Assembly (NCBI GenBank): GCA_011523505.1
Contig: WTGP01000008.1
Coordinates: 140,345-204,344, forward strand
Origin: Gammaproteobacteria bacterium
GTDB lineage: Bacteria > Pseudomonadota > Gammaproteobacteria > Steroidobacterales > Foliamicaceae
DNA: 64,000 nt
Reading direction: 5' to 3'
The first letter of the stretch is position 1. Each line of letters opens with the position of its first letter. The notes beneath the pieces are model-generated. The model saw only the letters and a program-made list of their open reading frames with translations, ran no database searches and was not told the origin of the DNA. This document shows, piece by piece, positions 14,430 to 16,697 of the stretch. The position numbers were made by a program, and so were the translations under genes.

Positions 14430-16697
14430 TTGAAGGGTTCCCGCATACCCGGTTTCTACCGCCTGACGCCGCGCGAGCGGGTGCAGACCGCGCTCGAGCA
14501 CGGCCTTTTGAGCGAGGCGGACTTCAAGGACCTTGCCCGGGGCCGCGCGAGCCTGGACGCCGCGCGCGCCGACCGCATGATCGAGAACGTGATCGGCGTC
14601 CTCGGACTGCCGGTGGGCCTGGGACTCAACTTCCTGATCAACGGCCGCGACTATGTGGCCCCGATGGCGGTGGAGGAACCCTCGGTCGTCGCCGCCCTGA
14701 GTTCAGCCGCCAAGCTCGTGCGAGAGGCGGGCGGCTTCACCGCCGAAGCCGACGACCCGGTGCTGATCGGGCAAATCCAGGTGCTCAACGTACCCGATCC
14801 GGCGCACGCGGCGGCCGACCTGCTGTCGCGGCGCGAGGAGATCATCCGCCTGGCCAACAGCATTCACCCGCGCATGGTGGCGCGGGGCGGCGGCGTGGTC
14901 GATGTCGAAGTGCACCGGCGCCCCATGCCCGGCGGCGAAGGCGAAATGCTGGTCCTGCACCTGCTGGTCGATACCCGCGATGCGATGGGCGCGAACCTGG
15001 TCAACAGCATGTGCGAGGGGGTTTCGGCGCTGGTCGAAAGCATGAGCGGCGGGCAGGTGTTCATGCGCATCCTCTCGAATCTCAGCGATCGCGCCCTGGC
15101 CCGCGCGGAGGTCGTGATCCCGGCGGAATTGCTGGGAGGCAAGGGGCAAAGCGGCGAGGACGTGCGCGACGGCATCGCCATGGCGGCCGAACTGGCCGCG
15201 GTCGATCCCTATCGCGCGGCAACGCACAACAAGGGCATCATGAACGGCGTCGACGCGGTAGCCCTGGCCACCGGCAACGACTGGCGGGCTCTGGAAGCCG
15301 GCGCGCACGCCTGGGCGGCGCGTCACGGCAACTACACGGCGCTCTCGAAGTGGTGGCGCGGCGACGATGGAGCGCTGTGCGGGCGGCTGGAGATGCCGAT
15401 CAAGGTGGGTACGGTCGGGGGCTCGCTGGAGGCCAACCCGGCCACCCAGTTGTTCCTGCGGATGATGCGGGTGGAATCGTCCCAGGAACTCGCGCAGGTC
15501 ATGGCGGCGGTCGGCCTGGCACAGAATTTTTCGGCGTTGCGGGCGCTGGTCACGGAAGGCATTCAGGCCGGCCACATGACCCTGCACGCCCGCACCGTGG
15601 TCAAGGCCGCCGGAACGCCGCCGGAACTGTTCGACCAGGTCCTGGAGCGATTGATCGGCGAAGGAGACGTCAAGGTCTGGCGCGCGAGGGAAGTCCTGGG
15701 CGAATTGGAAAGAAAGCGGAGCCTGCCCGCCCTGGACGAAGCGGCAATGGCCCGTCTCGGCGTGGCCGCGGGCAAACTGATCCTGCTGGGCGAGCACGCC
15801 GCCGTGTTCGGGCAGCCTGCTCTGGCCTGCCCCGTTCCGCTGAACGTGCGCGCCCAGATCGACGACAGCGAGGACGGCATACAGTTGGCGATCCCGGGCT
15901 GGGGACTCGAATACCGCCTCTCGCACTCGCGCCGGCGCCGCCCCTGGGAACGTTCGGCACTGAAGATGCTCGAGGAACTGGGTCTGGCCGGCAAGTCGAT
16001 GCGCATTTCCGTCTTTTCCGACCTGCCCCGCGGCGTCGGCCTGGGATCTTCGGCGGCGATGGCCGTCGCCATCATCCGGGCCCTGAACAAGCGCTTCGAC
16101 CTGGACCTCAGCGTCGAGAGGATCAATGAAATCGCCTGGGCCTGCGAACAGTTTGCGCACGGGCGCGCGAGCGGCGTGGACAATGCCGTCTCCGCCTATG
16201 CAACCACCCTGCTCTACCGCAAGAACACGCCGCCGGAAATCCGGCCGGTCAAGGCGGGCGCCGACACGTATTTCGTGATCGGCATCAGCAGTGAGGAAAG
16301 CCTGACGGCCGTAACCGTCGAAAACGTCAGGACGGCGCGCGACCGCAACCCGAGTGTTTATGACCGGATCTTCGAGGAGATCGGCGAACTCGTGGTTGAG
16401 GCCCGAAAGTGCCTGGAAGGCGGGCGCCTCGAAGAACTGGGCGACCTGATGAACCTCAACCACGGCCTGCTCAACGGCCTGCAGCTCGCCACGCCGGAAC
16501 TGGAACAGTTGATCGACGCCGCGCGCATGGGCGGAGCGCTGGGGGCCAAGCTGACCGGCGGCGGCGGCGGCGGGGCCATGCTTGCGCTGTGCGCCGAGAG
16601 CTGCCACACAGTCAAGGAATCGATCGAAAAGACCGGCGCGAGAACCATCGCGCTGAAGCTTCCCGCGGGCGGAGGAGAGGTGGAACTGGTCCCGTGA
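14430..16697 (+). CDS. mvaA: Class II HMG-CoA reductase fused to mevalonate kinase (GHMP kinase)
   Basis: HMGR motifs MIENVIG, MAVEEPSVVAA, DAMGANLVNSM, RAATHNKGIMNG, EGIQAGHMTLHAR; then MVK motifs GKLILLGEHAAVFG, PRGVGLGSSAA, HGRASGVD, KLTGGGGGG in one frame. The tracked start 14286 overlaps the TBDR; TTG 14430 is preferred. Confidence 0.92.
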   Translation: MKGSRIPGFYRLTPRERVQTALEHGLLSEADFKDLARGRASLDAARADRMIENVIGVLGLPVGLGLNFLINGRDYVAPMAVEEPSVVAALSSAAKLVREAGGFTAEADDPVLIGQIQVLNVPDPAHAAADLLSRREEIIRLANSIHPRMVARGGGVVDVEVHRRPMPGGEGEMLVLHLLVDTRDAMGANLVNSMCEGVSALVESMSGGQVFMRILSNLSDRALARAEVVIPAELLGGKGQSGEDVRDGIAMAAELAAVDPYRAATHNKGIMNGVDAVALATGNDWRALEAGAHAWAARHGNYTALSKWWRGDDGALCGRLEMPIKVGTVGGSLEANPATQLFLRMMRVESSQELAQVMAAVGLAQNFSALRALVTEGIQAGHMTLHARTVVKAAGTPPELFDQVLERLIGEGDVKVWRAREVLGELERKRSLPALDEAAMARLGVAAGKLILLGEHAAVFGQPALACPVPLNVRAQIDDSEDGIQLAIPGWGLEYRLSHSRRRRPWERSALKMLEELGLAGKSMRISVFSDLPRGVGLGSSAAMAVAIIRALNKRFDLDLSVERINEIAWACEQFAHGRASGVDNAVSAYATTLLYRKNTPPEIRPVKAGADTYFVIGISSEESLTAVTVENVRTARDRNPSVYDRIFEEIGELVVEARKCLEGGRLEELGDLMNLNHGLLNGLQLATPELEQLIDAARMGGALGAKLTGGGGGGAMLALCAESCHTVKESIEKTGARTIALKLPAGGGEVELVP

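Follow-up and report, generated by a model that had tools for sequence, protein, structure and literature searches.

A class II HMG-CoA reductase joined to a mevalonate kinase in a single gene of a gammaproteobacterial lineage

Introduction

In the mevalonate-dependent bacterium Enterococcus faecalis, a class II 3-hydroxy-3-methylglutaryl-coenzyme A (HMG-CoA) reductase (HMGR) is part of the bifunctional protein MvaE (HMGR part in PDB entries 7m1z and 7m3h), where its partner is an N-terminal acetoacetyl-CoA thiolase; the thiolase catalyzes step 1 of the pathway, so that the two steps are not consecutive, with HMG-CoA synthase (HMGS) acting between them. Here we describe a likewise bifunctional gene that joins a class II HMGR to a mevalonate kinase (MVK). 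It lies in a stretch of 64,000 nucleotides, in the following called the window, from a member of the Gammaproteobacteria (Steroidobacterales; Foliamicaceae), corresponding to positions 140,345 to 204,344 of contig WTGP01000008.1 (assembly GCA_011523505.1). The HMGR halves of MvaE and of this fusion are homologous (292 bits), but the partner in the fusion is a C-terminal kinase of the GHMP type that serves the very next step, and no thiolase domain was found by Pfam.

Further points of comparison are given by enzymes that stand alone. The class II HMGRs of Pseudomonas mevalonii (1qax) and Delftia acidovorans (6dio) have the same catalytic Glu/Lys/Asp/His, and their fold matches the HMGR half of the fusion with template modelling (TM) scores of 0.92-0.96. 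They prefer NAD(H), the P. mevalonii enzyme being catabolic, and their cofactor helix follows the pattern Dx(V/L)xxxL, whereas the fusion has HPRMVAR in this helix and continues with a 325-residue kinase after the last helix of the flap domain. The MVK of Methanosarcina mazei (4hac, 6mde), described as feedback-resistant (PMC5817203), has ~300 residues, 32-33% identity to the kinase half and the same GHMP motifs, but is a free-standing archaeal enzyme. In Oceanobacillus, Virgibacillus and Paucisalibacillus, the genes follow in the same order, hmgr and mvk, then mdd (diphosphomevalonate decarboxylase, MDD) and pmk (phosphomevalonate kinase, PMK), and the reductase has a helix of the NADPH type, YPS(I/M)VAR; unlike in the fusion, hmgr and mvk encode two polypeptides there, with a stop/start overlap of 4 nt. 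No study of an HMGR-MVK fusion was found in the full-text literature, a search whose coverage excludes most subscription journals; Hoshino & Gaucher 2018 (PMC6107057) trimmed fused partner sequences before tree building and report nothing more on the fusion.

Results

One gene for two consecutive enzymes

The open frame extends over 14286..16697 on the plus strand, and the open reading frame of a divergent TonB-dependent receptor, 5' of the fusion, reaches to 14358. Read from a TTG codon at 14430, the protein starts with MKGSRIPGFYRL and aligns with solved class II HMGRs from residue 3-4 onwards; the gene was therefore set to 14430-16697.

14430..16697, plus strand: fusion gene, class II HMG-CoA reductase and mevalonate kinase, 755 aa plus stop

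On the 755-aa protein, Pfam detects HMG-CoA_red (PF00368, 361.6 bits) at residues 21-387, GHMP_kinases_N at 510-590 and GHMP_kinases_C at 659-722, and both halves score above the equivalog cut-offs of NCBIfam (TIGR00532 and TIGR00549). We thus confirm that one gene joins a complete class II HMGR to a complete MVK, as had been claimed in a sequence-only reading of the window, which placed the two enzymes in a single uninterrupted frame at these coordinates. The motifs EEPSV, THNKG and GHMTLH and the linker ERKRSLPALDEAAMARLG (residues 427-444), which it had pointed out, are all found in the translation, and its view that the HMGR and the MVK-type GHMP kinase are consecutive pathway steps in an architecture unlike that of MvaE holds as well.

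The reductase half

14430..15719, plus strand: HMGR half, residues 1-430, including the C-terminal flap domain (~375-430); defined by TIGR00532, alignments and the AlphaFold2 model

This half reaches 417.1 bits with the class II HMGR model TIGR00532 (cut-off 259.95), and only 45 bits with the class I model TIGR00533 (cut-off 441.8), which excludes a match to class I. Over residues 3-427 it is 50-52% identical to the enzymes of D. acidovorans (6dio) and P. mevalonii (1qax). The catalytic residues E83, K268, D284 and H382, the last of them in the flap domain, align with Glu83, Lys267, Asp283 and His381 of P. mevalonii and with their counterparts in 6dio, and are invariant in 55/55 fusions of an alignment that spans 47-94% identity to the 755-aa protein. 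The flap domain is complete, the 6dio alignment reaching query residue 427 at chain residue 426 of 429.

An AlphaFold2 (AF2) model, built on the alignment of the 55 fusions, has a mean predicted local distance difference test score (pLDDT) of 85.8 and a predicted TM score (pTM) of 0.61, with two confident domains. In a Foldseek search it superposes on ligand-bound ternary complexes of P. mevalonii HMGR with TM scores of 0.92-0.93. The flap is modeled as three helices (378-393, 398-411 and 416-430) with a pLDDT of 65-78, and looks mobile. For its active site to form, HMGR has to dimerize.

The kinase half and the linker

15759..16694, plus strand: mevalonate kinase half, residues 444-755; defined by TIGR00549, GHMP motifs and fold match

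15720..15758, plus strand: interdomain linker, residues 431-443, SLPALDEAAMARL; defined by AF2 pLDDT and as an unconserved segment

With the MVK model TIGR00549, the second half scores 227.8 bits (cut-off 163.05), the next-best kinase models being those for galactokinase (78 bits) and PMK (54 bits). It contains the GHMP motifs GKLILLGEHAAV (K449, E455, H456), PRGVGLGSSAA (S541), E573...D584 and KLTGGGGGG (707-715); the six named residues and KLTGGGGGG are invariant in 55/55 fusions. We take K449, E455, H456, S541, E573 and D584 to be the equivalents of Lys13, Glu19, His20, Ser146, Glu193 and Asp204 of the rat enzyme, with matching spacings. All top PDB matches of this half are MVKs, the closest being that of M. 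mazei (6mde/4hac, 150 bits; TM score 0.87 for the fold), followed by that of Leishmania major (2hfs). The kinase half is expected to phosphorylate the 5-OH of mevalonate.

Within the model, residues 431-435 are the only ones with a pLDDT below 50. As this low-confidence gap separates flap helix 416-430 from kinase strand 444-453, the linker is estimated at ~13 residues. The segment from A419 to G448 has 20-45 residues across the 55 fusions and is variable in length and unconserved in sequence. The AF2 monomer does not yield a fixed interdomain geometry (pTM 0.61), and among Foldseek and PDB sequence matches there is no PDB chain that spans both halves.

Integrity and distribution of the fusion

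In Bacillaceae and in a myxobacterium, hmgr and mvk are two genes that abut each other, and a single frame could in principle be produced from such a pair by an assembly or frameshift error, or represent a recent pseudo-fusion. Independent assemblies refute this, and we rate its probability as negligible. In the same genus, 22/22 genomes carry an uninterrupted match of 754-755 residues with 86-99% identity and no internal stop, 11 of them being single-contig assemblies; a stop or frameshift between the domains, which the sequence-only reading had named as an outcome that would speak against it, is present in none of them. The other families of the order have the fusion in 13/19. In a database of 5.8 billion proteins, the best 120 homologues (56-94% identity) are all one protein of ~750 aa with the same three Pfam domains, HMG-CoA_red, GHMP_kinases_N and GHMP_kinases_C.

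About 40 fused loci were collected from species-representative genomes of several phyla. Among them are Rhodanobacteraceae, Woeseiaceae, Salinisphaera, Acidobacteriota, Calditrichaceae, Balneolaceae, Myxococcales and Nakamurella, metagenome-assembled genomes of Pseudomonadales, and the cultured Cryobacterium psychrotolerans (CGMCC 1.5382). Sampling 400 Gammaproteobacteria genomes evenly yielded 41 with an HMGR-level match; full-length fusions make up 11 of these, the present genome among them. The fusion is not rare: it is numerous in public databases, common among uncultured Gammaproteobacteria, and occurs in hundreds of bacteria more distant than the genus.

Cofactor helix and direction of the reductase reaction

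14865..14885, plus strand: cofactor helix motif HPRMVAR, residues 146-152; NADPH-like, His146 aligning with D146 of P. mevalonii

In NCBI records, the fusion is labeled "HMG-CoA reductase, degradative", and its best NCBIfam model bears the name 'HMG_CoA_R_NAD, degradative'. Together with the closest solved structures being the NAD-dependent enzymes of Delftia and P. mevalonii, this could be taken to mean that the protein is a degradative, NAD-dependent HMGR that oxidizes mevalonate and whose kinase serves salvage in some way. The term 'degradative' is, however, merely the name of model TIGR00532, and the cofactor helix is of another kind. According to the published rule, Dx(V/L)xxxL denotes NADH and (H/Y)xSxxxR denotes NADPH (PMC13488460, citing Miller & Kung 2018). 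The NADH-type helix is not present in the fusion reductase: aligned to RKDQLLNSL of 1qax, HPRMVAR carries His where the latter has Asp146 and Arg where it has Leu148; HPRMVAR also aligns with YPSIVKR of the NADPH-bound Streptococcus pneumoniae enzyme. Friesen et al. (1996) reportedly moved the P. mevalonii enzyme in the direction of NADP by exchanging D146 and L148 for small and basic residues. The pattern [HY]xxxxx[RK] is found in 46/61 fused proteins, typically as HP(K/N/R)MVAR, with Asp in only 1/61, while 31/97 stand-alone HMGRs of the same set have Asp at the start of the helix. The fusion reductase is therefore predicted to prefer NADPH.

Apart from the helix, the gene neighbors are idi and the TonB-dependent receptor, with no HMG-CoA lyase, and no further route to isopentenyl diphosphate (IPP) appears to be encoded. 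A catabolic role is also hard to reconcile with the fused kinase, because the kinase would draw on, and remove, the mevalonate that the oxidative reaction needs. On the strength of the NADPH-type helix, the lack of a neighboring HMG-CoA lyase and the apparent lack of another route to IPP, we reject the degradative reading, which we consider very improbable. The biosynthetic direction had already been favored from the sequence, and is now strongly supported by the missing methylerythritol phosphate (MEP) pathway, by the complementary occurrence of the fusion and 1-deoxy-D-xylulose 5-phosphate reductoisomerase (DXR), and by operons in other genomes, all described below. The accompanying idea, that the kinase pulls a degradative-type reductase into this direction, is weakened by the NADPH (anabolic) type of the helix: a reductase that uses NADPH would already be of the anabolic type, and a pull by the kinase is then not needed.

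The isoprenoid pathway of this genome

The genome assembly comprises 3.1 Mb in 53 contigs and is 95% complete. In it, the fusion is the sole HMGR and the sole MVK. Directly downstream, it overlaps with a gene for isopentenyl-diphosphate isomerase (IDI):

16694..17215, plus strand: idi, type-1 isopentenyl-diphosphate isomerase (Nudix); NF002995, TIGR02150

16671..16679, plus strand: GGAGGAGAG, Shine-Dalgarno-like, within the 3' end of the fusion, 15 nt 5' of the idi start

The idi product scores 189.8 bits with NF002995 (cut-off 127) and 150.4 bits with TIGR02150 (cut-off 105.8). Its GTG start at 16694 overlaps the TGA stop of the fusion at 16695-16697, and this GTGA overlap suggests that the two genes may be translationally coupled.

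For the remaining steps, phmmer searches with the kinase half missed MDD and caught a PMK-like gene only weakly, and a Pfam six-frame search found both. MDD is encoded on contig C19 (TIGR01240, 227.5 bits, cut-off 171), with the PMK-like GHMP kinase beside it (L008 8056-9195, 100 bits), and a divergent HMGS with both Pfam HMGS domains on contig C53 (L009 6021-7511). The genus has thus scattered the pathway over three loci, and only the fusion and idi are still together. Automated annotation would probably miss both the PMK-like and the HMGS gene, and report an incomplete pathway.

Of the MEP pathway, DXR and IspH gave no match in the 53-contig draft. The whole genome has three GHMP kinases, and since these are all accounted for by the MVK of the fusion, MDD and the PMK-like protein, there is no IspE. 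The MEP pathway hence appears to be missing in this genome, leaving the mevalonate pathway as the sole source of IPP.

The same picture emerges from related genomes. Among 41 genomes of the order, 35/35 carriers of the fusion are without DXR, and 6/6 non-carriers have it; counted by genome, this split has an exact probability of 2e-7, and counted by genus one of 3e-5, both uncorrected for shared ancestry. DXR is also missing in 29 of 36 fusion carriers of other lineages. The usual setting outside this genus is an operon MDD-PMK-[fusion]-IDI with HMGS nearby: in the ~40 fused loci, MDD and PMK are located immediately upstream in 30, and IDI immediately downstream in 27.

Taken together, we consider it highly likely that the fusion is a bifunctional anabolic enzyme that carries out the committed reduction and the next phosphorylation on what is, in this organism, the only route to IPP and dimethylallyl diphosphate (DMAPP). 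Several points weigh against this. The third position of the cofactor motif is Arg, where the published NADPH motif has Ser, for which reason the NADPH preference is a prediction only. In 7 of the 36 distant carriers, DXR occurs alongside the fusion, which shows that IPP need not come through the fusion alone. The PMK-like protein (100 vs 166 bits) and HMGS (171 vs 360 bits) remain below the NCBIfam equivalog cut-offs, and their identities consequently rest on Pfam, gene position and homology to operon partners. Finally, absence of the MEP pathway from a draft of 53 contigs is not absolute, yet the 11 single-contig congeners are also without DXR.

Under the anabolic reading, the N-terminal class II HMGR would reduce HMG-CoA to mevalonate, probably with NADPH, and the C-terminal kinase would phosphorylate that mevalonate with ATP to mevalonate-5-phosphate. 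The PMK-like kinase and MDD (C19), HMGS (C53) and the coupled IDI would complete a classical mevalonate pathway, which, with MEP absent, would be the only route to IPP and DMAPP. Most plausibly, the fusion provides a fixed 1:1 stoichiometry, co-folding and co-localization, with mevalonate trapped as a phosphate ester. It appears to have been inherited throughout the genus and most of the order, and is present in other phyla as well. The architecture, the intact catalytic residues, the context of the pathway and the phyletic pattern are observations; both activities, the NADPH preference and the selective advantage of the linkage we infer.

Origin of the fusion and related architectures

Two trees were calculated, one of 213 HMGR domains with FastTree and a quick tree of 86 with IQ-TREE. 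Most fusions form one main clade (FastTree support 99, comprising 56 fusions and 4 short, possibly truncated proteins; IQ-TREE support 97), whose sister group is formed by the Bacillaceae genera Oceanobacillus, Virgibacillus and Paucisalibacillus, in which hmgr and mvk are two genes that overlap by 4 nt. This overlapping pair looks like the pre-fusion state. In the most likely scenario, two neighboring, overlapping genes became one when the stop codon that separated hmgr from mvk was lost. In four genomes of the Gammaproteobacteria sample (G110, G228, G272, G387), the match to the fusion crosses a single in-frame stop after the HMGR and extends to query residue ~460-480, so that hmgr shares its frame with the following gene and only that one stop codon separates them from a fusion.

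A few HMGR-to-MVK fusions fall outside the main clade, and a single origin of all of them was rejected by the approximately unbiased (AU) test on the 86-row IQ-TREE quick tree (p = 2.9e-7). Reverse-order MVK-HMGR fusions (P0144, P0151, P0154 and P0176, all 50%-identity representatives) must have arisen by fusion events of their own, and triple fusions HMGR-MVK-Nudix(IDI) with 928-952 aa were found as well (P0123 and P0125, likewise 50%-identity representatives). In the window, loss of the GTGA stop/start overlap at 16694-16697 would yield such a triple fusion. A 12-member clade (support 99) is dominated by extended architectures and includes P0153, P0155, P0158 and P0174, in which HMGR is combined with polyprenyl synthetase and squalene/phytoene synthase (1162-1453 aa), or with SQS_PSY and/or an NAD-dependent epimerase-type domain (880-1253 aa). 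Class II HMGR is thus often found as a fusion partner, and it became joined to MVK on more than one occasion.

Possible channeling between the two active sites

The linkage may bring a benefit, kinetic or regulatory, that goes beyond co-expression, by true channeling or by conformational coupling, if mevalonate is handed over directly to the kinase or the ligand state of the kinase gates the reductase. For this speaks the position of the ~13-residue linker, which is attached to flap helix 416-430 of a mobile flap that carries the catalytic His382; opening of the flap could deliver mevalonate to the kinase, or binding of nucleotide or product by the kinase could gate the flap, a mechanism that we regard as rather doubtful. 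Repeated fusion of HMGR and MVK, in both orders and in triples with IDI, also suggests selection for physical linkage. This is countered by the linker being unconserved in sequence and length, by the model, which predicts no fixed interdomain interface (pTM 0.61) and gives no evidence of a tunnel, and by the nature of mevalonate as a small, freely diffusing molecule; moreover, the reverse-order fusions argue against one specific geometry. On balance, channeling or coupling seems unlikely to us. If true, the enzyme would have its own hand-off, or its own feedback control over the committed isoprenoid step, in bacteria that gave up the MEP pathway.

Flanking signals and other features

A promoter scan over 14200-17400 found no sigma-70-like site by consensus. 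By eye, the region 14405-14432 has a perfect TATAAT at ~14410-14415, ~15 nt 5' of the TTG codon, and lacks a clear Shine-Dalgarno sequence; a fusion transcript with a very short leader is possible. Elsewhere in the window, 8550-10079 on the minus strand encodes a TauD-family dioxygenase of 422 residues (TauD domain at 19-282) with an unassigned C-terminal stretch of ~130 residues. Two mirrored open reading frames, 18654..18908 on the minus strand and 18669..18923 on the plus strand, both start with MNALPF and end with ERQRIHESAH, which indicates a long inverted-repeat element at 18654-18923, just upstream of purB. On contig C19, dndC (676 bits) and dndD (591 bits), genes of DNA phosphorothioation, are located directly upstream of the MDD/PMK pair (L008, G000:C19:452000-468403, 2917-6453).

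Discussion

Each of the two enzymes is a textbook case by itself. Their joint HMGR-MVK architecture is real, widespread and under-annotated, and appears to be uncharacterized. Hundreds of database records are named as a degradative reductase, a name that hides the kinase, implies the wrong direction of the reaction, and leads to MVK being reported as missing in pathway reconstructions. For whole uncultured lineages of Gammaproteobacteria that swapped the MEP for the mevalonate pathway, the fusion is the sole HMGR and the sole MVK. It offers a natural test system for channeling by fusion of consecutive enzymes, for which controls are at hand in the Bacillaceae, where the pair is unfused, and in the reverse-order and triple fusions, and a compact part for isoprenoid engineering that combines a predicted NADPH-dependent reductase with an archaeal-like kinase. 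Organisms that rely on the fusion should be insensitive to inhibitors of the MEP pathway, and dependent on one protein.

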